Source: a bacterium
GTDB taxonomy: Bacteria; Hydrothermota; 32-111
Direction: 5' to 3'
Length of the DNA stretch: 64,000 nt
Assembly: GCA_050239825.1 (NCBI GenBank)
Contig: JBFXGO010000002.1
Span: forward strand, 13,490-77,489
The position numbers and the translations under genes were made by a program. This document shows positions 2,500 through 45,839 of the stretch, one piece after another. The notes beneath the pieces are model-generated. The model saw nothing but the letters and a program-made list of their open reading frames with translations. It was not told the DNA's origin and did not search any database. Every line of letters starts with the position of its first letter. Position 1 is the first letter of the stretch.

Positions 2500-2995
2500 T
2501 GTAAAGACAAAATCTTACTCAGCAGTGTCACCCTGAACGCTTCTATGGTTATGACTATCGTGAAGGGTCTATCAGTTTATTGCTTATTGATAATTGAAGA
2601 TTGAGCTGGGGCTGCACGCGGGCATAGCGTCGACTCACACACTCCGCTTCGCCGCTTTATCAAGATGGGAAAGCGGAGCAAGGGGTCGGCCACTTGATGG
2701 GCGTCTGCGCGGAGCGTCCTCGCCGACTTGTAGCTTTCACTTTCAATAAGTTAATTAATTGATTGTCCTCATGAGAAGCATTGAAAAGACGAGCGCTGTG
2801 GACAGGCTTCTCATTCGGAATTGTAAAGACAAAATATTAATCAGCAGTATATTGAGTTATGACTGTACTGGAATTTTTCCTCGGAACTGTAAAGGCAATT
2901 TATTTACTCAGCTCCCCGTATTATGCGCATGGCACACGGCTCATGGCTCAAGGCTGATTTTGTGGCTGCACGCTGGCATAGCGTCGGCTCACACA
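2500..2995 (+). repeat. Short mosaic repeat locus: one full ~128-bp core (2608-2735), one partial core (2962-2995) and linker modules shared with the 41.8-43.65 kb array
   Basis: Near-identical to 41808-42034 and 43150-43325, e.g. TGTAAAGACAAAATCTTACTCAGC, GTCACCCTGAAC...GTGAAGGGTCT, CACTTGATGGGCGTCTGCGCGGAGCGTCCTCGCCGAC. Confidence 0.95.
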
Positions 2996-34705: not shown

Positions 34706-36093
34706 TATATGCCCCCTCCCTTTAAAACTATCGGAATTGTCTTTACAACAATCGCAAAATCATATATAAGAGACCATTTATCTATATACTCCATATCCTT
34801 ATACATCCAGTCCGTAAAATCAATTTCATTCCTTCCGGAAATCTGCCAAAGGCATGTGAGTCCGGGTTTCATGGAGAGGCGTCTTCTGTGCCAGAACTCA
34901 TACTCTTTTACTTCACTTAGAAGCGGTGGCCTCGGTCCGACAAAAGACATCTCCCCTTTTAGAATATTTAAAAACTGAGGTATCTCGTCAAGACTATACT
35001 TTCTTAAAAATCTGCCAAGCCTTGTCACCCTCGGGTCTTCCACTATTTTAAAGACCGGTCCGCTCATTTCATTCTTCTCAACAAGCTTCTCCTTCATCTC
35101 CTCGGCTCCTTTTACCATAGTGCGGAATTTAATCATTTTAAATGCTTTTCCGTTCATCCCCACCCTCTCCTGAATAAAGAGTATGGGTCTGCCCATGAAA
35201 ACAAGTATCAAAAGAGTCACAAGCAGATAAATCGGCATCATGAGAATAATAAGAATCAAAGAAAAGATTTTGTCAAAAAAATATTTAAGATAAATCGGCA
35301 TCGGTTTTTCGTTGGTATCGGAGAATTCAAGAAAATCAAATCCAAAGACTGTCTGGGTTGAAACAAAGTTGTTTTTCTTGACATTGAATATTGTGTCAAT
35401 GTTCACCATTGTTTTTATGCCCGACTCTGCAAAGAGGTTCAGGTATTCTTCTATTTTCTCGGAATCTTTCTTTTCACCGGCAAAAATTACAAGGTCGATA
35501 GGCATTGATTTTATTTTATCAGCCGTCTTTTTGTCAAATCCGTCTATATCATACTCATTTGCAAGAGTTATCCCCCAGTCTCTGTGAGAACGTATCAGCT
35601 GGGTTATCTGCTTGAATGCGGCGCCTCTTCCGATGATGACTATGTCGCTCAGCCCTTTATTGCTTCTGAATTTTGAGATTTTATAAAACTGATACAGCTT
35701 TCTCTCTGCTACAAGAAAAATGACATTTATCGCAGAAAAAAGCAGAATGAAGATTCTTGAAATTATAAATCCCTTTATAAGAAATGTAATCGAGAGTATG
35801 AGAATGGTGCCTACAAAGACAATCTTTGTCACATCGTATGCAATTTCTTTAAATGATTTATTCGGCAGAATCTGAACTTCGCGGCTGCCGGAAAGAAGTA
35901 TCGTCCACACGAGCAGAATAAGAATAAAGAGGAGGGCATAATACTGTATATCGACAAGAAAGCTGTTGTTGTCTATAACAAGAAAGCTTCTTATGAAGAA
36001 TGCAAGGGCGAATGCCAAAACAGTGACAAGCAGGTCAAGAAACACAAGGGATATCCTCGTGTGTTCCCTTTTACTCCCCAGAAGCATCTTCAA
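34705..36093 (-). CDS. Polyprenyl-phosphate glycosylphosphotransferase (WcaJ/WbaP family)
   Basis: KFRTM, DPRVT, SLDEIPQF, GEMSFVGPRP, KPGLT. Confidence 0.92.
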   Translation of the reverse strand: MKMLLGSKREHTRISLVFLDLLVTVLAFALAFFIRSFLVIDNNSFLVDIQYYALLFILILLVWTILLSGSREVQILPNKSFKEIAYDVTKIVFVGTILILSITFLIKGFIISRIFILLFSAINVIFLVAERKLYQFYKISKFRSNKGLSDIVIIGRGAAFKQITQLIRSHRDWGITLANEYDIDGFDKKTADKIKSMPIDLVIFAGEKKDSEKIEEYLNLFAESGIKTMVNIDTIFNVKKNNFVSTQTVFGFDFLEFSDTNEKPMPIYLKYFFDKIFSLILIILMMPIYLLVTLLILVFMGRPILFIQERVGMNGKAFKMIKFRTMVKGAEEMKEKLVEKNEMSGPVFKIVEDPRVTRLGRFLRKYSLDEIPQFLNILKGEMSFVGPRPPLLSEVKEYEFWHRRRLSMKPGLTCLWQISGRNEIDFTDWMYKDMEYIDKWSLIYDFAIVVKTIPIVLKGGGI

Positions 36094-37120
36094 TTCTCCT
36101 GTAATTTTTCAGCATTTTAAGAAGAGAGTATACAAAAATCATTGCTGTAAAAATTCCGTATAATACAAATACTGCCGGCGATGGGAAAAGAAATGAGAGC
36201 ACTGAAAATGCCGCAAATATTATGTTTATTCCATATATTAAAAGCACAACCGTATTGTGTTTCGTCCTACCGCCCATAAGAATGTGATGAATGTGATTTT
36301 TGTCAGGCGCGAAGAGCGGTCTTCGGGCAATAACTCTTCTTACAACAGAAAGAACAAGGTCAAGGAATGGATATGTGAAAAGCACTATAAATGCATACCA
36401 TGACTCTGTAAGATGGTATGAGAGAAGCATTATCATCATGGAAAACATACTGCCGAGGAAGAGACTCCCGGTATCGCCCATAAAAATCTTCGCCGGATAA
36501 AAATTAAAGACAAGAAACCCTCCCAGAGCCCCCATAAGAGAGAGTGTGAGAAAGACAAGGTACGCCTTGCCGGTAAGCACTGAAAAGAAGAGAAGAACCG
36601 ACGAGAGTATGAATGATACTCCTCCGCATAGTCCGTCAAGCCCGTCAACAAAATTGATTCCGTTTATAACAGTTGCAAAAAGAACTGCTGAGAGTATTGT
36701 AAGAGTTGCATTTGTAAAAATTATATTGTTGAAAAGAATCGCTAGGTCGTTTCTGTTCCAAAGAAAAAAGAATGCCCCAGCCAGTAGTTGAAACATAAAT
36801 TTTGATTTCGCAGATACTCCATGCACATCATCGATGAGTCCGATTACAAAAAACAGAGTGCTTGTCGAAAGAAGCTTAAGGGTGGAGCTGTCCGCTTCAA
36901 TTATTCCAACGGCATTCAGGACTATCATGGTTATCCAGGTGGCTCCGAACAAACCGATGCCGCCCAGGGTCGGAATCTTCTCAGTGTGAACCTTTCTTTG
37001 ATTTGGAATATCATGAAAACCAAAATCTATCGCAAGCCTCTTTATTATATTGACAAGAAGCGCAGAGAGCATTCCCGAGAGAAGTATTATTGGTAATATT
37101 AATTTATTCATATTTTTCAA
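36071..37120 (-). CDS. WecA/TagO-family undecaprenyl-phosphate GlcNAc-1-phosphate transferase
   Basis: RKVH..PTLGG, GLIDD, NFVDGLDGL, FMGDTGS, DKNHIHH. Confidence 0.9.
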   Translation of the reverse strand: MKNMNKLILPIILLSGMLSALLVNIIKRLAIDFGFHDIPNQRKVHTEKIPTLGGIGLFGATWITMIVLNAVGIIEADSSTLKLLSTSTLFFVIGLIDDVHGVSAKSKFMFQLLAGAFFFLWNRNDLAILFNNIIFTNATLTILSAVLFATVINGINFVDGLDGLCGGVSFILSSVLLFFSVLTGKAYLVFLTLSLMGALGGFLVFNFYPAKIFMGDTGSLFLGSMFSMMIMLLSYHLTESWYAFIVLFTYPFLDLVLSVVRRVIARRPLFAPDKNHIHHILMGGRTKHNTVVLLIYGINIIFAAFSVLSFLFPSPAVFVLYGIFTAMIFVYSLLKMLKNYRRIEDASGE

Positions 37121-37252
37121 TCCTTATAATATTCATAGCAAAATATTATATATCTAATTAATCATATTGTCAAGAAATCACAACTTCTGCAGGTGTTTGT
37201 TGTTGATTTTTTTTAATATATGCTTAAAATAGCTTTTTTTAAAGGAGGTTTA

Positions 37253-39016
37253 ATGAACAAGCGGTGGAATCTCGACGCCCTATATCCTTCGTTTGAATCA
37301 AATGAATTTCTTGAAGATATCAAGACTCTGGATTTGGAGATTGCCGAGCTGATTGAGTTCGGAAATTCTGATTTTTCGGCAGACAAGAGGGCGGCTATTG
37401 AAAAATATATAGGGCTGGCGGAAAAATTTTATAACACACTTTACCGCCTCTTCGCCTTCTGTTCTCTCACCCTTGCAGTTGATACATCAAACAGTAGCGG
37501 AATGAATTTTAAGGATCTTCTTCTCAAGAAATCAAATTCGGCAACGGTTCCTTTCACAAAATTCCGCCTCTTTATAAAAGATTTAAACGACCTTGAAAAA
37601 CTCGCAGAAGAGAGCGCCACTATAAACTCCCACCTGTTTCATCTTAAAGAGATGCGCACATCTGCAAAACGCCTCTTCTCTCCGGAAATAGAGGAGATGG
37701 TATCAGACCTTCAGCGCACCGGCTCTTCGGCTTTCTCATCTCTCCAGAGTCAGCTCACGAGCAACCTCATCGTGAATGTAGAGGTTGACGGAAAAGTCAA
37801 GCCGATGTCCTTGGCGCAGGCAAGAAATCTCTACTATGAAAAAGACAAAGATCTTAGAAAGAGGGCATACGATGCAGAAATTTCTTCCTACTCACTTATT
37901 GAGACTCCATCATCTGCCTGCCTCAGTGCCATAAAGGGGGAGGTCATAACTCTCTCAAAGAGGCGCGGCTATTCATCCGCCCTTGAAATGACTCTTGAAG
38001 AGAGCAGAATGGATATGGATACTCTTGATGCCCTTCTTGGTTCAATGAGAACATCTCTCCCAATGTTCAGAAAATATTACAGACACAAGGCAAAGCTTCT
38101 TGGAAATAATGATAAATTGCCGTTTTATGACCTTGTTGCTCCGGTTGGACAAAGCAGAATCTTTTTCACCTATGAAGAGGCTGCCGATTATATTCTGAAG
38201 GCGGAGAGGAAATTCTCTCCGGAGATAGCTGATTTCATGAAGAATGCCTTCGATAATTCTTGGCTCGACATTGAGCCGAGAAAGGGAAAGCGCGGAGGCG
38301 CATTCTGCAGCACGATTTATTCAGTGCGCCAGTCAAGGATACTCGCAAATTTCAACGGCTCCTTCGATAATATGACAACTCTCGCGCATGAGCTGGGACA
38401 TGCCTATCATGGGTATGTTCTAATGGATGAAACCATTTTGAATTCTGATTATCCGATGCCTCTTGCAGAGACGGCTTCCATTTTTTCGGAGACTGTGGTT
38501 ATGGATTATTCTTTCAGGAATATGTCTGACGACAATCTTCTGACGATTCTTGAAAATGATATTTCAAGCGCCGCAACCGTTATTGTTGACATATATTCAA
38601 GGTATCTCTTTGAAACAGAGCTTTTCAGGCAGAGAGAATCATCCGTTCTTTCCGCAGACAAGCTGAAAGAGCTAATGTCAAAGGCTCAGATTGAAGCATA
38701 CGGAGACATTCTTAACGAAAAATTTCTGCATCCTTACATGTGGGCAAACAAACCTCACTACTATTATCCGGGAGCCAACTTCTACAATTTCCCCTATGCA
38801 TTCGGATTTCTCTTTGCGAAAGGTCTGTATGCCATATACAAAAAAAATCCTATAAATTTCACTGAAAAGTACAAAACTCTTCTCAGAGAGACCGGAAAGA
38901 ACACAATATACAATGTCGGTCTCTCAGCCGGCATAGACCTTCATAATAGGAAGTTTTATGACGACACATTTGAAATGATATCAGGCGACATTGAAAGGTT
39001 CTTGACAATGAAATGA
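37253..39016 (+). CDS. pepF: Oligoendopeptidase F (M3B)
   Basis: GGAGG and ATG at 37253; WNLDALY, GKRGGAFC, AHELGHAYH, AETAS, FYNFPYAFG. Confidence 0.9.
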   Translation: MNKRWNLDALYPSFESNEFLEDIKTLDLEIAELIEFGNSDFSADKRAAIEKYIGLAEKFYNTLYRLFAFCSLTLAVDTSNSSGMNFKDLLLKKSNSATVPFTKFRLFIKDLNDLEKLAEESATINSHLFHLKEMRTSAKRLFSPEIEEMVSDLQRTGSSAFSSLQSQLTSNLIVNVEVDGKVKPMSLAQARNLYYEKDKDLRKRAYDAEISSYSLIETPSSACLSAIKGEVITLSKRRGYSSALEMTLEESRMDMDTLDALLGSMRTSLPMFRKYYRHKAKLLGNNDKLPFYDLVAPVGQSRIFFTYEEAADYILKAERKFSPEIADFMKNAFDNSWLDIEPRKGKRGGAFCSTIYSVRQSRILANFNGSFDNMTTLAHELGHAYHGYVLMDETILNSDYPMPLAETASIFSETVVMDYSFRNMSDDNLLTILENDISSAATVIVDIYSRYLFETELFRQRESSVLSADKLKELMSKAQIEAYGDILNEKFLHPYMWANKPHYYYPGANFYNFPYAFGFLFAKGLYAIYKKNPINFTEKYKTLLRETGKNTIYNVGLSAGIDLHNRKFYDDTFEMISGDIERFLTMK

Positions 39017-39029
39017 TTTTGATTAGAAT
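39002..39029 (+). promoter_or_regulatory. Sigma-70-type promoter for dnaA
   Basis: TTGACA-16 nt-TAGAAT, overlapping the pepF stop. Confidence 0.6.
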
Positions 39030-39043
39030 GATTTTCCCTTGAG

Positions 39044-40405
39044 TTGTATTTAAAAAAGAAAATGAAAACATTAAATGATCAGTTGCACAAAATCCTTTCA
39101 GAGAAAGTGTCATCCGCCGATTACAGCCGCTGGCTCTCTTCTCTCCGCATAAAGGAGCTTGACGAAAGAAGCATTACGCTTATTGTTCCGACCAATGTTA
39201 TAAAAGAGATGATAGAGGATGATTTGTTTCAGGAGCTTGTGGATTCCATCCGCTCTATTATGGATAGGGACCTTCAGATAAGAATCGTTGCAGAGAAGGA
39301 CATTCATGACATCCCAAAGGAGCTCAACCCGTTTAAAAACAATGATTTTGGAATAATAGACACATCATCTCTCAACACAAAATATACTTTCGAAGAATTT
39401 GTCGTGGGAAAATCAAACGAACTCGCTTATGCCGCATCTTTCTCCTTGACAAAGACTCCTGGCGACCAGTACAATCCGTTATTTATATACGGTTCGAGCG
39501 GGCTCGGAAAGACGCATCTGTTAAATGCGATAGGAAATCAGATTAAGCAGAATGACCCGAGAAAGAAGATCTATTACCTTTCAACGGAGAGATTTCTCAA
39601 CGAATATGTCTTTGCCATTCAAGAGAAGAAAATTCTTGATTTCAGAAACAAATACAGGGAGATGGATGTTCTGCTGCTTGATGATATTCATTTCCTGAAT
39701 AAAAAAGAGGGAACGCAGGAGGAGATTTTTCACACATTCAACGCACTGTATGAAAACAACAGTCAGATTGTTTTAACATCAGACAGACCTCCCAATGAAA
39801 TTCAATCTCTTGAACAGCGGCTTGTTACAAGATTTCAGTCAGGACTCGTAGTCGACATACAGCCGCCCGATTTTGAAACAAGATTGGCGATACTAAGAAA
39901 GAAGGTGGAGAGCGACAACATACAGATAGGCGATGATTGTCTTATCTACATCGCCAATAACATTAAAAATAATGTCAGGCTTTTAATTTCAGTCATTATA
40001 AACATACTCGCGCACTCTTCTCTTCTTAAAAAGAATGTCGATATAAATCTGGTGAGAGAGGTCGTAACAGGAATAGTGAAGCCGACCCATGATTCTGTTT
40101 TTTACAGTAAAAAAATTATGCCTGCGGATATTTTGAAGACAGTCTCTGAATATTATAAAATTCCCGAATCCCAGATAACAGGAAAAAAGCGCACTGCATC
40201 ACTGGTTATACCCAGACAGATATCGGCATTCCTTATGAAGAAGTTCACTCAACTCTCCTTAAAGGAGATAGCAGAAAAACTGGGAAAGAAGGACCACTCG
40301 ACAATCATACACGCTGTAAAAAAGATTGAAGAGCTCTCCAAAAGGAATGACAGCAGAGTAAAAGAGGATATTGAGAGCATAATCAGTTTATTGAATATTG
40401 ATTAG
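39044..40405 (+). CDS. dnaA: Chromosomal replication initiator DnaA (likely start 39062)
   Basis: YTFEEFVVGKSN, NPLFIYGSSGLGKTHL, LLDDI, QEEIFHTFN, DHSTIIHA. Confidence 0.98.
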   Translation: MYLKKKMKTLNDQLHKILSEKVSSADYSRWLSSLRIKELDERSITLIVPTNVIKEMIEDDLFQELVDSIRSIMDRDLQIRIVAEKDIHDIPKELNPFKNNDFGIIDTSSLNTKYTFEEFVVGKSNELAYAASFSLTKTPGDQYNPLFIYGSSGLGKTHLLNAIGNQIKQNDPRKKIYYLSTERFLNEYVFAIQEKKILDFRNKYREMDVLLLDDIHFLNKKEGTQEEIFHTFNALYENNSQIVLTSDRPPNEIQSLEQRLVTRFQSGLVVDIQPPDFETRLAILRKKVESDNIQIGDDCLIYIANNIKNNVRLLISVIINILAHSSLLKKNVDINLVREVVTGIVKPTHDSVFYSKKIMPADILKTVSEYYKIPESQITGKKRTASLVIPRQISAFLMKKFTQLSLKEIAEKLGKKDHSTIIHAVKKIEELSKRNDSRVKEDIESIISLLNID

Positions 40406-40581
40406 CTGTGGATAATATAAGAACAACTTTGGTTTTTCCACATCAACTTCGGTTAACAACATAATTGTGAATATGTCTGTTGATTTTAAGGTGTAATTTT
40501 GATATAATTTAATACGGTTATGAACATATGGACACTTAATAATAGAAGTAATAAGAAAATTAATACTATAAAGGAGGAGAG
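40406..40581. other. Replication origin oriC
   Basis: Perfect DnaA box TGTGGATAA (40407-40415); near-matches TTTTCCACA (40434-40442), TGTGAATAT (40466), TTATGAACA (40518); DnaA-trio-like TAATAATAGAAGTAATAAG (40537-40555); AT-rich; between dnaA and dnaN. Confidence 0.85.
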
Positions 40582-41691
40582 ATGAAATTTCACGTTGACA
40601 AACAAGAGTTTTTGAAAAACCTCAATACAATATCAAGCATTGTTCCTGCAAAACCCATTGTAACAATAATCTCCAATATTATGATTGAAGCGAAAAAAGA
40701 GACATTGTCATTTTCCTCTACTGATTTTGAAATAACAATGCATTCAGAGATGCCTGCAACAGTCACTGAGGACGGAGTGATTGTTATAAATGCAAAGACA
40801 ATAGTTGAACTTGTAAGAAAACTTCCTGAAGGCGAACTCTCAATATCTCTCTCCAATGATGAAGTATCTATAAAATCAAAGTCAGGCATTTATAAAATGC
40901 CTGTAATCAAGAAAGATGATTATGTGGAAATTTCAAGAATAGAAAAAAACAAGATGTTCAATGTTGATTCTCTTCCATTGAAATCTGCAATAGACAATTC
41001 AGTATTTGCAGTTTCCAAAGATGCCGTAAAAGTTGCAATAACCGGAGTTCTTCTTGAAGGAGCCGGAAAGAATCTGACATTTGTTGGAACAGACGGACAC
41101 AGGTTGGCATTTTATTCAATCAAAGATATTTTTGAAAAACCCATATCAAATTCTGTTATAATTCCTCCAAAGGTTTTGACGATTCTTAGAGACCTTATTG
41201 ATGATGTGGATGAATTCAGCATGGGTTTTGATGAAAAGAGAATTATGTTCAAAGTCAAGACAATAGAAGTCTGGGCAAAACTCATAGAGGGTACATATCC
41301 TGATTACAAACGAGTCATACCAACGGATAACAATAAAGTCATGATTGTCAAAAAGGATGACCTTATAAATTCTCTTAACATAATAAATGTGTTTACAAAT
41401 CCAAATACGAGGCTTGTCAAATTTGAAATAGAGAGCGGCAAGCTTATAATAAATGCGTATCAGAATCAGACAGGAGAGGGGACGGAGTTTATCGAAGTCG
41501 ACTATGAAGATAAAGAGAAGCTTGTGATAGGATTCAACAATAACTATCTTCTTGAAATACTAAAACGGATAGAGACTGAGAATGTAAAGTTTAAATTCAA
41601 GGGAGAGATGTTTGCTGTGATAGTTGAAAACGAAATGAGCAAGGTTGATCAGGAGGCAATTTATATTATAATGCCTCTCAGATTAAAGTAA
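40582..41691 (+). CDS. dnaN: DNA polymerase III beta sliding clamp
   Basis: STDFE, GTDGHRLA, LIEGTYPDYKRVIP, IGFN, IMPLRL. Confidence 0.97.
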   Translation: MKFHVDKQEFLKNLNTISSIVPAKPIVTIISNIMIEAKKETLSFSSTDFEITMHSEMPATVTEDGVIVINAKTIVELVRKLPEGELSISLSNDEVSIKSKSGIYKMPVIKKDDYVEISRIEKNKMFNVDSLPLKSAIDNSVFAVSKDAVKVAITGVLLEGAGKNLTFVGTDGHRLAFYSIKDIFEKPISNSVIIPPKVLTILRDLIDDVDEFSMGFDEKRIMFKVKTIEVWAKLIEGTYPDYKRVIPTDNNKVMIVKKDDLINSLNIINVFTNPNTRLVKFEIESGKLIINAYQNQTGEGTEFIEVDYEDKEKLVIGFNNNYLLEILKRIETENVKFKFKGEMFAVIVENEMSKVDQEAIYIIMPLRLK

Positions 41692-41715
41692 AAACAGATT
41701 TATATTATTGAGTGC

Positions 41716-41744
41716 AAAGAGGCGGGGTAACTCCCGCCTCTTTT
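41716..41744 (+). terminator. Rho-independent terminator after dnaN
   Basis: AAAGAGGCGGG-GTAACT-CCCGCCTCTTTT. Confidence 0.85.
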
Positions 41745-41807
41745 ATTGAAAATGTAAAAGAGTGAAAATATAGGAAGGTTAGAATGTGAGGGAGATTGAG
41801 TAAAGCT

Positions 41808-43654
41808 AAAATCTTACTCAGCGGTGTCACCCTGAACGCCTCTATGGTTATGACTATCGTGAAGGGTCTATCAGTTTATTGCTTATTGATAATTGAAGAT
41901 TGAACTGGGGCTGCACGCAGGCGTAGCGTCGGCTCACACACTCCGCTTCGTCGCTTTATCAAGATGGGATAGCGTAGCGAGGGGTCGCCCACTTGATGGG
42001 CGTCTGCGCGGAGCGTCCTCGCCGACTTTGAGCTTTCATTTTCAATAAGAATTGATTTGCTTGTCCTCGGAAAAACATTGAATAGCAGTGCGGAGATGCA
42101 CTGGAATTTTTCCTCGGAAATGTAAAGACAAAATCTTACTCAGCTCCCCGTATTTTGCTCAAGGCACATGGCTCACGGCTCATGGCTGATTTTGGGGGCT
42201 GCACGCGGGTGTAGCGTCGGCTCACACACTCCGCTTCGCCGCTTAATCAAGATGGGATAGCGTAGCAAGGGGAGAACCACTTGATGGGCGTCTGCGCGGA
42301 GCGTCCTCGCCGACTTGTAGCTTTCGTGTATCAATAAGTTAATTAATTGATTGAATCTTCACAAAGCATTGGCGAGGGTGTAATGTGCGCGAGCGCACAT
42401 GATAGACGCCTCGGGCTGCACCAGAACTTTGTGAAGATTACTGTAAAGACAAAATCTTACTCAGCGGTGTCACCCTGAACGCCTCTATAGTTATGACTAT
42501 CGTGAAGGGTCTATCAGTTTATTGGTTATTGATAATTGAAGATTGTTCTGGGGCTGCACGCGGGTGTAGCGTCGGCTCACACACTCCGCTTCGCCGCTTA
42601 ATCAAGATGGGTTAGCGGAGCAAGGGGACAACCACTTGATGGGCGTCTTCGCGGAGCGTCCTCGCCGACTTTGAGCTTTCACTTTCAATAAGTTAATTAA
42701 TTGAATGAATCTTCTAAAACCATTGGCTGGGGTGTAATGGACGCGAGCGCACATGATAGACACTTCGGGTTGCACCAGAACTTTGTGAAGATTATTGTAA
42801 AGACAAAATCTTACTCAGCAGTATCACCCTGAACGCCTCTATGGTTATGACTATAGTGAAGGGTCTATCAGTTTATTGTTAATTGATTATTGAAGATTGT
42901 TCTGGGGCTGCTGGCGGGCTTAGCGTCGGCTCGCACACTTCGCTTCGCCGCTTAATCAAGATGGGATAGCGGAGCAAGAGGTCGCCCACTTGATGGGCGT
43001 CTGCGCGGAGCGTCCTCGCCGACTTGTAGCTTTCGTGTATCAATAAGTTAATTAATTGCCTGAATCTTCTAAAACCATTGGCGCGGGTGTAATGGACGCG
43101 AGCGTCCATGATAGAAAAAACGGGTTGCACCAGAAGTTTTAGAAGATTATTGAAAAGAATAAATATTAATCAGCAGTATATTGAGTGATGACTGCACTGG
43201 AATTTTTCCTCGGAAATGTAAAGACAAGTTATTTACTCAACTCCCCGCATTAAGCTCAAGGCACATGGCTCACGGCTCATGGCTGATTTTGGGGCTGCAC
43301 GCGGGTGTAGCGTCGGCTCACACACTCTGCTTCGCCGCTTAATCAAGATGGGTTAGCGGAGCAAGGGGACAACCACTTGATGGGCGTCTGCGCGGAGCGT
43401 CCTCGCCGACTTGTAGCTTACACTCTCAATAAGAATTGATTTGCTTGTCCTCGGAAAAACATTGAATAGCAGTGCGGAGATGCACTGGAATTTTTCCTCG
43501 GAAATGTAAAGACAAAATCTTACTCAGCGGTGTCACCCTGAACGCCTCTATGGTTATGACTATCGTGAAGGGTCTATCAGTTTATTGTTAATTGATTATT
43601 GAAGATTGTTCTGGGGCTGCACGCGGGTGTAGCGTCGGCTCACACACTCCGCTT
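41808..43654 (+). repeat. Non-coding tandem mosaic array of structured repeats
   Basis: ~128-bp cores start at 41907, 42195, 42550, 42904, 43291 and (partial) 43613; period 288-387 bp; linkers are reused modules; no credible ORF. Confidence 0.97.
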
Positions 43655-43663
43655 TTGCTCCTA

Positions 43664-43692
43664 TTGACAATATTGTTTAAATATTATATATT
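43664..43692 (+). promoter_or_regulatory. Sigma-70-type promoter of the PBP1A operon
   Basis: TTGACA-17 nt-TATATT, 8 nt before the ATG. Confidence 0.65.
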
Positions 43693-43700
43693 GAAATATT

Positions 43701-45839
43701 ATGGTTAAAAAAGCATTTAAAAATTTTAAAAAGAGCAAGAAGACCAAAAAAACAGTAAACACCGCGATATTTGTTTTTGGACTTATTGTTTTTATTGCTG
43801 TCTTTGCGGCAGTGGGCTTTGCAGTTACAATGTATTTCAGTCTTCAGAAAGAGATTCCAACCATGACAGATATGTTCATATACTCGGCTCCTTCAGCCAC
43901 TTTGATATATGATGACAACAACAGAAAAGTGACGGAACTCTTCCTTGAGAAAAGGATGCCGATTAAACTCAAAGAGCTACCTCAATACTCGATAGACGCA
44001 GTCATATCGCTTGAAGATCAGCAATTTTACTCGCATTGGGGAATAAATGTAGCGAGATTTTTTGTGGTTTTGACAAAGAATATGCTGACATTAAAAAAAG
44101 GAGCGGGAGCATCTACCATAACACAACAGCTTGCAAGGAACATGTTCCTCACAATGGAGAAGACATGGACAAGGAAGATAAAAGAGGCTCTCATAACCAT
44201 AAATCTTGAGCGCAACTTTTCAAAGGATGAAATTCTTGAAATGTATTTCAACCAGATAAACTATGGCTCGGGAGCTTACGGCATAGAGGCCGCATCAAAC
44301 ATGTATTTCAATAAATCTGCGCGGGAGCTCACTCTTGCAGAGGCAGCAATGCTTGCGGGAATTCCGCAGATTCCGGAAAAATTCAATCTTTTCAGGCATT
44401 ATGACAATGCCAAAAAACGCCAGAAGCTATGTCTAAGCAATATGCTTCAAGAAGGATACATATCAAAGGAAGAGTATGAGGATGCCGTTGATGACAGTGT
44501 GATAGTGATAAAAGGCTCCAAAGATGCAGAGTATGGAAGATACTTTATAGAGGAGGTCAGAAAAGAGGTCATATCAAGGTTTGGCATGAATACTCTCTAT
44601 AAGGGCGGTCTGAAAATCTATACAACAATGAATTCCGATATGCAGAGAGAGTCAGAAAAAGTTGTGGAAAAAAAGATGCTCTATTTTGAAAAAATGTACA
44701 AATTCAAAAATACAAAAGAAAAGTATGATGAAATATTTTCAAAAGACACGGCAATAACTGTTCCCCCGCAGTATCTTCAGGCAAGTATGGTAATAATTGA
44801 AAATGAGACAGGAGAGGTCAAGGCAATAGTCGGAGGCAGGGATTTTGAACAGTCCGAATACAACAGGGTCTTACAATCGAAGAGGCAGCCCGGTTCAATT
44901 TTTAAAATATTCCTCTTTTCAGCCGCAATAGAGAGCGGGATGAATCCGGGAGACATAATTATGGATACTCCGGTGGTTCTTGACGACGGAAGTGACACCC
45001 CGTATAAACCGAGAAATTTCGACGGGGATTTTTTGGGGCCTATACCTTTGCGCAAAGCTCTTGCACTTTCAAGAAATGTAACGGCTATTAGGCTTATAAA
45101 GAGCATAGGACCCGGAACTGTAGTAAAACACGCAAAGAAGCTGGGAGTTGAATCGCAGTTGACTCCGGTGCTCTCTCTGGCTCTCGGTTCAAGTGATGTC
45201 ACTCTCTTTGAAATGGTGAGGGCATTCTCCGTATTTCCAAACAAAGGAATACTCAGAAAGACGAGCATGATACGATATATTGAGGATGCTCAGGGAAATG
45301 TGATTTTTGAAAATGACAATCTTGAATCAAGAGTGATGGATGACGATGACGCATACATAGTGACAAACATGCTTGAAAGCGTTGTAAAAGAAGGCACTGC
45401 GGCTGGGCTTAAATATTACAAGTTCAATGTGCATATAGGCGGAAAGACGGGAACTACCGATGATTATTCGAATACATGGTTTGTTGGTTTTACAAAAGAG
45501 TATACCGCTGGTGTCTGGGTGGGCTTCGACAAACTCCGCACAATAGCCGATAAGGCAACCGGAGCGGTGCTTGCGCTTCCGATATGGGCTGAGACAATGA
45601 AGCCCTTTGTCAACAATGCCGATTCTCTGCCGTTTCCTCAGACAGACAGTATAATCCATGTGACAGTATGCCGCGAATCCGGGCAGATAGCAACGAAATA
45701 CTGCAAGTTCATACGGGATGAAATATATAAAAAAGGTCACGAACCCAAGGTGAGTTGTGAAAAGCATATAAAGGGCTACTCAACCAATCAGGATTTTGAT
45801 TTTTCAAAACAGGACATTCTCAAAGATGATGACCTGTGA
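43701..45839 (+). CDS. Class A penicillin-binding protein (PBP1A family)
   Basis: EDQQFYSHWG, GASTITQQLARN, RKIKE; transpeptidase SIFK, SRN, KTGT. Confidence 0.95.
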   Translation: MVKKAFKNFKKSKKTKKTVNTAIFVFGLIVFIAVFAAVGFAVTMYFSLQKEIPTMTDMFIYSAPSATLIYDDNNRKVTELFLEKRMPIKLKELPQYSIDAVISLEDQQFYSHWGINVARFFVVLTKNMLTLKKGAGASTITQQLARNMFLTMEKTWTRKIKEALITINLERNFSKDEILEMYFNQINYGSGAYGIEAASNMYFNKSARELTLAEAAMLAGIPQIPEKFNLFRHYDNAKKRQKLCLSNMLQEGYISKEEYEDAVDDSVIVIKGSKDAEYGRYFIEEVRKEVISRFGMNTLYKGGLKIYTTMNSDMQRESEKVVEKKMLYFEKMYKFKNTKEKYDEIFSKDTAITVPPQYLQASMVIIENETGEVKAIVGGRDFEQSEYNRVLQSKRQPGSIFKIFLFSAAIESGMNPGDIIMDTPVVLDDGSDTPYKPRNFDGDFLGPIPLRKALALSRNVTAIRLIKSIGPGTVVKHAKKLGVESQLTPVLSLALGSSDVTLFEMVRAFSVFPNKGILRKTSMIRYIEDAQGNVIFENDNLESRVMDDDDAYIVTNMLESVVKEGTAAGLKYYKFNVHIGGKTGTTDDYSNTWFVGFTKEYTAGVWVGFDKLRTIADKATGAVLALPIWAETMKPFVNNADSLPFPQTDSIIHVTVCRESGQIATKYCKFIRDEIYKKGHEPKVSCEKHIKGYSTNQDFDFSKQDILKDDDL

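Follow-up and report, generated by a model that had tools for sequence, protein, structure and literature searches.

We analysed a 64,000-nucleotide (nt) stretch from a bacterium of the Hydrothermota (GTDB 32-111; assembly GCA_050239825.1, contig JBFXGO010000002.1, positions 13,490 to 77,489 of the forward strand), which we call the window. Between dnaN and a class A penicillin-binding protein (PBP) gene, the window carries an array of direct repeats built around a 128-nt unit, the rod, whose two halves form a long, nested, imperfect palindrome. The original prediction, made from the sequence of the window, held that the rod is selected as a single-stranded, plus-sense structure, possibly with two conformers. 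Here we find that the complementarity of the rod's arms is indeed maintained, that the variants of the rod do not favour the plus strand, and that the rod is somewhat more probably the palindromic core of a non-coding, mosaic repeat that lies between genes, is specific to the genus and is of the same kind as the repetitive extragenic palindromic (REP) elements, the bacterial interspersed mosaic elements (BIMEs) and the clusters of REP doublets forming hairpins (REPINs).

Anatomy of the rod

A repeat search bore out the predicted 128-nt unit at 41907-42034 and its six full copies in the window (starting at 2608, 41907, 42195, 42550, 42904 and 43291), together with two 5′ fragments. The rods of the window, all on the plus strand, are as follows.

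41907..42034, plus strand, rod copy 1, the 128-nt unit under study
Parts of rod copy 1: variable 5′ leader (unit positions 1-16); GTAG at 41923-41926; imperfect palindrome at 41928-42026
Helices of rod copy 1: 41928-33/42021-26, 41941-46/42008-13 and 41958-63/41992-97; apex at 41969-41987
42195..42322, plus strand, rod copy 2
42550..42677, plus strand, rod copy 3
42904..43031, plus strand, rod copy 4, the CTTCGC variant
43291..43418, plus strand, rod copy 5, the CTCTGC variant
43613..43654, plus strand, truncated rod (unit positions 1-42) at the end of array 2, abutting the PBP gene's native promoter region
2608..2735, plus strand, full rod of the first array, carrying GTCGAC, which leaves an A-C mismatch on the plus strand
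2964..2995, plus strand, truncated rod (unit positions 3-34) at the end of array 1

Across the 91 standard-length copies of the genome, the ends of the unit are kept (GGCT in 83/91 and AGCT in 88/91 copies), and unit positions 17-20, one base 5′ of the basal stem, read GTAG in 59, ATAG in 19 and TTAG in 8 copies, which gives an NTAG head in 86/91. The palindrome then occupies unit positions 22-120, a length of 99 nt. Three parts make up the rod: a leader that varies, the NTAG tetranucleotide, and a palindrome of 99 nt whose base is near-invariant and whose apex is a swappable module. The 12 bases between GGCT and NTAG (unit positions 5-16, for example 41911-41922) are hypervariable and fall into a few block types (CACGCGGGTG, CTGGCGGGCG, ATGAATAGCG and GCAGGTAAGMC), which shuffle independently of the L module (see below) and of the 3′ tail of the rod; on inspecting the copy table, we saw no association of this block with either the tail or the type of L module.

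A frame of 51 amino acids spans the rod in two copies of the window. We rejected a coding role because the common variable columns 30, 51 and 69 fall at second codon positions and because a 37-nt apical deletion breaks the frame. A search of Rfam 15, self-cleaving ribozymes included, yielded no match at gathering score in the whole window and none at E<=1 within 41700-43700.

The arms of the palindrome remain complementary

We scored the predicted structure on an alignment of 55 sequences, 49 copies from the genome and 6 from relatives and a metagenome. The structure was 92.3% paired, compared to 34-48% for slid controls, with helices 2-5 paired at 94-98% and the inner helices overall at 94-100%. 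In the 91 standard-length copies, Watson-Crick pairs were present in 81-91 copies at positions 22-27/115-120, 32-33/109-110, 35-40/102-107, 44 and 46-48 with 94-96 and 98, 52-57/86-91 and 59-61/83-85. Most of the nested pairs of the original prediction were upheld at this level (GTCGGC/GCCGAC, CTCCGC/GCGGAG, the CGCC/GGCG region, ATCAAG/CTTGAT and TGG/CCA), and only the proposed outer helix, GCTGCA/TGTAGC, fell short: it is 75% paired, three of its pairs are variable and unpaired in 23-28 of the 55 sequences with no association, and the 5′ bases of this stem can pair equally well with the adjoining positions 15-21.

The folding energy of a single sequence was less informative. Folded as RNA, the plus strand of rod copy 1 had a z-score of -1.06, with 26/200 shuffles folding as well, while the z-score of the minus strand was -2.75; G+C-rich shuffles fold well in any case. 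Since the plus-strand energy is no better than chance, the case for structure lies in conservation and compensation. Double compensatory changes occur in relatives at 37/105, 38/104 and 23/119, and in short-apex copies at 52/91. Relatives have CTTTGC/GCAAAG versus CTCCGC/GCGGAG here, both one-sided intermediates being in existence, and GCCGGC/GCCGGC in place of GTCGGC/GCCGAC; in short-apex copies, ATC...GAT is replaced by GTC...GAC. The original prediction had also pointed to covariation in the inner stem (GGGAT..GCCCA versus GGGTT..AACCA), which the counts do not bear out: copies with A at position 63 have AA in 36 cases and GC in 16, and those with T have AA in 23 and GC in 11.

One common base carries at least four different apical or interior modules, namely the standard apex, a short apex, a long apex with a GGGGACA...TGTCCCC hairpin, and the type-2 interiors of a congener, each of them self-complementary. 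The type-2 rods (L038:1597-1729 and L088:1500-1660 of the congener) share the base and flanks of the rod and have an unrelated, yet self-complementary, interior, in one case with an added GGGACAG...CTGTCCC tip. The unpaired internal-loop residues of the rod are invariant, and the near-invariant base and loops of the palindrome suggest a sequence-specific recognition site. As judged from these alignments, the complementarity of the rod's arms is maintained in the inner helices, equally for both strands.

The rod does not favour the plus strand

The original prediction rested its plus-sense reading on three C-to-T changes in 5′ arms that keep G-U pairs on the plus strand. These changes are present as described, and so is the GTCGAC counter-example in the 2608 copy, but as a signal of strand they vanish over the 91 copies: plus-only G-U variants amount to 16 cells at 7 pairs, and minus-only variants (A-C on the plus strand) to 20 cells at 9 pairs, with 9 copies of the GTCGAC type among the minus-compatible variants. 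The plus-strand inference was therefore a small-sample effect, drawn from three changes in six copies and balanced once 91 were counted. Fixed wobbles likewise occur on the plus strand (42/100, 49/93 and 50/92) and on the minus strand (30/112 and 34/108, near-fixed A-C mismatches that are G-U only on the minus strand).

The rod copies are close kin (mean identity 92%, effective sequence number 1.14), so the strand tests have low power. Over a strand-neutral set of 33 pairs, 90.7% were paired on the plus strand and 88.3% on the minus strand, and the compensated pairs were identical on both. RNAalifold, which the original prediction had proposed to run on both strands, favoured the minus strand (-43.3 kcal/mol and 31 pairs, compared to -24.9 kcal/mol and 29 pairs for the plus strand). 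For the core at positions 22-120, the minus strand is the more stable one in 79/89 distinct copies when folded as RNA and in 66/89 as DNA, while the full 128-nt unit with its 5′ leader, folded as RNA, is slightly more stable on the plus strand in 58/89 copies. The strand tests thus show equality or a lean to the minus strand, and equal support for both strands was the outcome that the original prediction itself had named as counting against plus-sense selection. The constraint is one on a DNA palindrome, or on a hairpin of either strand, and not demonstrably one on a plus-sense RNA.

The two proposed conformers derive from a second GCGGAG in the apical loop that could compete for CTCCGC. Said to be present in most copies, it is found in 4/6 copies of the window and 50/90 of the genome. 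The competition is thermodynamically real in those 50 copies, where the partition function gives the alternative helix (35-40:66-71) a probability of 0.65 and the rod helix 0.25, compared to 0.74 for the rod helix in the 40 copies that lack the apical GCGGAG. No selection for a switch is visible, however. Position 69 of the rod is G or T, which makes the competitor itself polymorphic, and the apical GCGGAG occurs in 0/6 standard-type relatives and in no short, long or type-2 apex variant; from this distribution, it looks incidental.

The rod is an abundant, genus-specific repeat

A blastn search of the rod against its own genome (2.1 Mb, 39.8% G+C, 67 contigs) returned 135 matching pieces, 95 of which reach full length, in 45 arrays. 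Within an array the rods are spaced by about 290-420 nt, and they point in one direction in 44/45 arrays, the exception being one mixed array on contig C39. No 16-mer is commoner in the genome than one from the 3′ arm of the rod, which occurs 103 times.

Beyond this genome, BLAST found the rod in 2/2 congeners and in 0/38 other relatives, and a covariance-model search found it in 3/151 genomes of the phylum, belonging to 1/76 genera. A pattern scan of named genome records located it in five contigs of a candidate division WOR-3 bacterium metagenome-assembled genome (MAG) and in one contig of a Vulcanibacillus sp. MAG; the pattern also occurs in eight metagenome stretches and had 0 matches in viral contigs. 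Literature searches on repetitive extragenic palindromic elements in WOR-3, or on repeats in Stahlbacteria, found no papers.

A second abundant repeat of the genome is unrelated to the rod family. It is a 126-nt tandem repeat, apparently within long coding regions (C9:67400-69000 and C17:8750-10200), and several of its 16-mers are present at 42-54 copies.

Rods and hairpin modules form mosaic arrays

The two arrays of the window, their modules and the genes beside array 2 are as follows.

41800..43654, plus strand, array 2: five units, each of a J junction motif, an L module (LA or LB), a rod and an R hairpin module (R1 or R2), and a truncated rod
42035..42118, plus strand, R1 module, with a terminator-like hairpin (42086-42103) and a T run behind it
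42119..42142, plus strand, J junction motif, AATGTAAAGACAAAATCTTACTCA, recurring between units; 62 near-full copies in the genome
42323..42441, plus strand, R2 module, with a long hairpin, CTTCACAAAG...CTTTGTGAAG
40582..41691, plus strand, dnaN (DNA polymerase III beta), upstream neighbour of array 2
43701..45839, plus strand, class A PBP gene, downstream neighbour of array 2
2500..2995, plus strand, array 1: J-LA-rod-R3-X-LB-truncated rod, starting 16 nt past the stop of a DAGK/YegS-type kinase gene

The same order holds genome-wide: J, L (LA or LB), rod and R (R1, R2 or R3), at times with an extra X module. Units of L, rod, R and J recur 2-6 times in most arrays, six being the maximum, and the array modules together cover at least 35 kb, or 1.7% of the genome. 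The positions of the rod's 5′ arm at which arrays end or chimeras are joined vary (34, 35, 37, 42, 51, 56 and 64-65). With junctions at so many positions, the rod has no fixed transposon termini, and frequent recombination between modules is evident. One chimera is recurrent (C14:11105-11399, C16:407-622, C39:5696-5760 and C54:14678-14760) and joins the 5′ half of a rod, up to about position 50, to the head motif described below, the A/T hairpin of that motif and a new rod; the join is at the same point each time, and on C14 the chimera repeats with a 90-nt period.

Array 2 is the largest rod array of the window and lies directly after dnaN. The dnaN-PBP spacer measures 1966 nt here and 98 nt in a congener that has no array there, and the extra DNA begins just past the terminator of dnaN and reaches the PBP gene's native -35 region; in a second congener, this spacer holds another module set. 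Compared with the congener's orthologous spacer, array 2 is an insertion, and the arrays entered only this lineage. A terminator-like hairpin of dnaN (41724-41740) lies ahead of the array and a promoter-like site (43664-43692) directly past it, before the PBP gene; no promoter-like site was seen within array 2. Among four DNA sequencing runs from two studies, the unique flanks of the array are present at a depth of about 27 in run X1. Public contigs stop at 41837 and resume at 43625, both of them edges of the array, and the joints derive from other copies.

This part of the window also contains the likely replication origin (36000-40500), with the cumulative GC skew at its minimum at about 36-40 kb and gene direction flipping at about 37.1-37.2 kb, shortly before dnaA (39044-40405) and dnaN; array 2 lies beside it. 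Elsewhere in the window, two pairs of short direct repeats (61212-61277/62877-62942 and 20129-20170/62440-62481) span the ribosome-binding sites and starts of small genes with signal-peptide-like N-termini (MKKLLTLFLMIGVLG...), which suggests paralogous lipoprotein or secreted-protein genes.

Array polarity follows the neighbouring genes

Convergent and divergent gene contexts are by construction uninformative on array polarity. In the 14 arrays whose neighbours are both in tandem, 13 were co-oriented with these genes and 1 was opposed. Arrays lie on the locally purine-rich strand in 32/37 cases, and 9/27 arrays with a co-oriented upstream open reading frame start within 35 nt of its stop. IS200/IS605 relatives insert strand-specifically into single-stranded DNA at the replication fork, and the polarity of the arrays fits either such insertion or co-transcription with the genes as plus-sense RNA. 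The two causes are not separable because gene and replication direction are confounded in the fragmented assembly. Array 1, left of the likely origin, follows both of its flanking genes against the regional skew; it is the sole array that separates transcription from replication, and it is a single point in favour of transcription.

RAYT-like genes carry a motif that is physically linked to the arrays

The genome contains four Y1_Tnp genes (273-303 codons) whose products have a helix-turn-helix (HTH) at the C-terminus. For the protein encoded on contig C14, the best NCBIfam model is the REP-associated tyrosine transposase (RAYT), matched over the full profile length with 56.5 bits, under the 80-bit cut-off. 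Three of these four RAYT-like genes are flanked by inverted copies of a head motif, AGGGACGGTGGTT, which is followed by a short variable hairpin (bracketed stretches C14:63634-64522, C5:4300-5153 and C56:10993-11940). Two of the genes themselves lie at C14:63668-64483 and C5:4333-5109, and the motif beside the C5 gene matches the heads of the arrays. The same motif forms inverted doublets of about 110-200 bp (C14:36254/36454, C28:13895/14095, C41:22135/22334, C47:6391/6592 and C22:10780/10892). By their arrangement, these doublets are a population resembling REPINs or miniature inverted-repeat transposable elements (MITEs), one that reaches a far greater size in two other genera of the family (24-47 copies). 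Relatives hold 8-47 copies of the head motif compared to 0-2 for a reversed control, and there too it flanks RAYT-like genes.

In this genome, the head motif has 36 copies (at most 1 mismatch). Rod arrays make up 2.0% of the genome, yet 14 of the 36 copies lie inside them or within 150 nt, in 12/45 arrays. The rods and these 14 copies share one orientation throughout, and those copies that lie outside the rods are all on the upstream side; two external contigs repeat this arrangement of head motif and rod array. We rejected a descent of the rod from head-motif doublets, as a BLAST comparison with five doublets from relatives gave only chance words of 7-9 nt.

RAYT-like genes are present in 12/13 genomes of the family, and rods are not family-wide. 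Because the genes and their motif are spread across the family while the rods are limited to the genus, a RAYT/REP-type system is old in the family, and the rods are a genus-specific addition that has been physically joined to it. From this linkage, we infer that RAYT-like enzymes act on rods.

Comparison with known repeat systems

REPs are described as palindromes of 20-50 nt behind a conserved tetranucleotide, mostly GTAG, with a Y1 transposase cutting at a nearby CT (in the available text of PMC8266576). The rods resemble REPs and BIMEs in being high-copy intergenic palindromes with a tetranucleotide head, although NTAG is less strict than the head of Escherichia coli REPs, in their mosaic tandem arrangement with linker motifs, and in a genome that encodes RAYT-like Y1 and HTH proteins between inverted repeats. 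They differ in the length of the palindrome, in being all direct where BIMEs pair a REP with an inverted REP, and in not flanking the transposase genes, since tnpA-REP/RAYT genes are flanked by the same REP there while rods flank 0/4 here. The number of genes also differs: four RAYT-like copies are present here, and RAYTs typically have a single copy per genome (according to the accessible part of PMC5581495).

In Pseudomonas fluorescens SBW25, the portion of PMC3116915 at hand describes lineage-specific, ordered tandem clusters of REPINs, in which the hairpin repeats together with its 5′ and 3′ flanks (f1/f2). The rod arrays are alike in that what repeats is a hairpin of about 100 nt, in their ordered tandem clusters that include the flanks, and in being lineage-specific. 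A REPIN, by contrast, consists of two inverted copies of the most abundant 16-mer, which flanks the RAYT gene, while the commonest 16-mer of the rod is not beside RAYT-like genes; the motif that flanks those genes is another sequence, forming REPIN/MITE-like doublets of its own. Unlike the REPIN clusters, the arrays here, with up to 6 units, are the rule, not the exception.

Two further systems share features of design. ERIC/IRU (enterobacterial repetitive intergenic consensus/intergenic repeat unit) elements of Enterobacteriaceae are imperfect palindromes of about 127 bp, mostly solitary. The rods share their size class, their long imperfect palindrome, their internal deletions or insertions at fixed sites and their intergenic location beside genes; they differ in forming polar mosaic arrays and in their host phylum, and the likeness is one of size and design, no relation in sequence being expected. 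Integron attC sites are imperfect inverted repeats of 57-141 nt with core sites RYYYAAC and GTTRRRY at their ends. They resemble the rods in their conserved base, unpaired residues, variable tip, direct arrays and one-strand folding, whereas the rods have no core sites, no adjacent integrase or gene cassettes, and 45 loci.

Discussion

The rod family consists of mosaic intergenic hairpin repeats, a known class of element. In the explanation that we favour, by a modest degree of confidence, units that run head to tail (J, L hairpin module, rod, R hairpin module) pile up in gene spacers, and the family would spread and reshuffle on single-stranded DNA and by recombination between copies. Its spread would probably involve the RAYT-like Y1 (HUH) transposases, whose terminal motif is co-oriented with the arrays at their upstream edge or inside them, and effects on the transcripts of neighbouring genes may be by-products.

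Several observations weigh against this explanation. A palindrome of 99 nt is far over the length of REPs, and the rods never pair up in inverted orientation, as REP and inverted REP do in BIMEs. The 6 kb to either side of each of the four RAYT-like genes contain neither a rod nor any other array module, so that, by the definitions used for REPtrons and REPINs, the rod is not their REP. An exclusive co-occurrence of the RAYT-like family with rods was rejected, most of the 12 genomes that have the genes being without rods. The variable junction positions fit illegitimate or microhomology recombination as well as they fit any enzyme, the 13:1 co-orientation with flanking genes would fit a role at the level of RNA too, and compensatory changes in a palindrome can arise through hairpin-templated repair, without selection.

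Such an RNA-level role is familiar from enterobacteria, where REP and ERIC elements take part in 3′-end protection, termination or processing of transcripts. The arrays would then be transcribed with, or read through from, a neighbouring gene, and plus-sense rods and L and R hairpins would act in the transcript. The polarity of the arrays and their purine-rich strand speak for this, as do array 1 tracking its genes despite the opposite regional skew, the starts close behind upstream stop codons, the terminator-like hairpin of R1 and the slightly greater plus-strand stability of the full unit; against it stand wobble variants that are balanced between strands, an RNAalifold result and a core minimum free energy that both favour the minus strand, a dnaN terminator-like hairpin that precedes array 2 while no promoter-like site lies inside it, the confounding of gene and replication direction, and the lack of an Rfam match. 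We regard it as possible, if on the unlikely side. The specific form given in the original prediction, a plus-sense structured RNA whose two conformers make it switch-like or self-cleaving, draws on the alternative helix of the GCGGAG copies; with a competitor that is polymorphic and missing from the relatives and the other apex types, with no hit to a ribozyme or riboswitch at E<=1 within 41700-43700 and with no preference for the plus strand, we consider it extremely improbable.

Two other explanations treat the rod as DNA. BIMEs have been reported to bind nucleoid, gyrase-type or regulatory proteins, and the rod could be a double-stranded binding palindrome for a protein of that sort, with no single-stranded intermediate. 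PMC8266576, in its available text, gives the functions of BIMEs in general terms. The strand-neutral symmetry and the invariant loop residues, which would be specific contacts, agree with duplex binding. The two arms, however, are asymmetric in their loops (TCAC versus CCTC, and TT versus TCTGC), and the apices are replaced by unrelated self-complementary sequence, as expected of an intrastrand hairpin and not of a site bound as duplex, which leaves this explanation improbable. The rods could also be attC sites of an integron or belong to another tyrosine-recombinase cassette array, given that their 128-nt size and design resemble the attC sites of chromosomal integrons, that near-identical copies stand in direct arrays and that the minus (bottom) strand folds better. 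Two defining features already fail, however: neither core site was found in any of 95 copies, in either polarity and with 25-nt flanks included, and the 160-280-nt "cassettes" are a few repeated non-coding modules. The 45 separate loci and the arrays ending in truncated rods also disagree with a cassette array, and the three clear tyrosine recombinase genes (C50:45332, C66:3317 and C7:47262) have their nearest rod 4-20 kb away. We give this explanation hardly any weight.

The preferred explanation, a mosaic repeat of the REP/BIME/REPIN-cluster kind, has a more specific version, which we put forward as an unlikely, tentative proposal. In this REPtron variant with two palindromes, HTH-bearing, RAYT-like HUH transposases that know the family-wide head motif would have recruited, in this genus, the NTAG-headed 99-nt rod with its swappable apices as a second single-stranded substrate. 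They would thereby build polar, gene-co-oriented arrays of multiple hairpins on the strand exposed at the fork or in transcription. If true, this would be a directional array-building activity, and to our knowledge none has been described for REP/RAYT systems.

For the rod itself, our analysis corrects the claim of strand, as the three changes that kept G-U pairs in six copies are no signal over 91, and adds a strand test over all copies, the modular apex, the congener's empty site, the polarity statistics and the physical link to the RAYT-like terminal motif. There is also a practical side: rod arrays break assemblies, and we advise masking them before RNA-gene searches in these genomes. As far as we know, nearly all that is understood of REP/RAYT biology comes from Proteobacteria. 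For a repeat family that had not been described, in an uncultured phylum, there is now a concrete anatomy and a testable candidate partner enzyme, and a family-wide RAYT-type motif within genus-specific arrays of long hairpins would offer a useful natural experiment for studying how domesticated transposase-repeat systems diversify.

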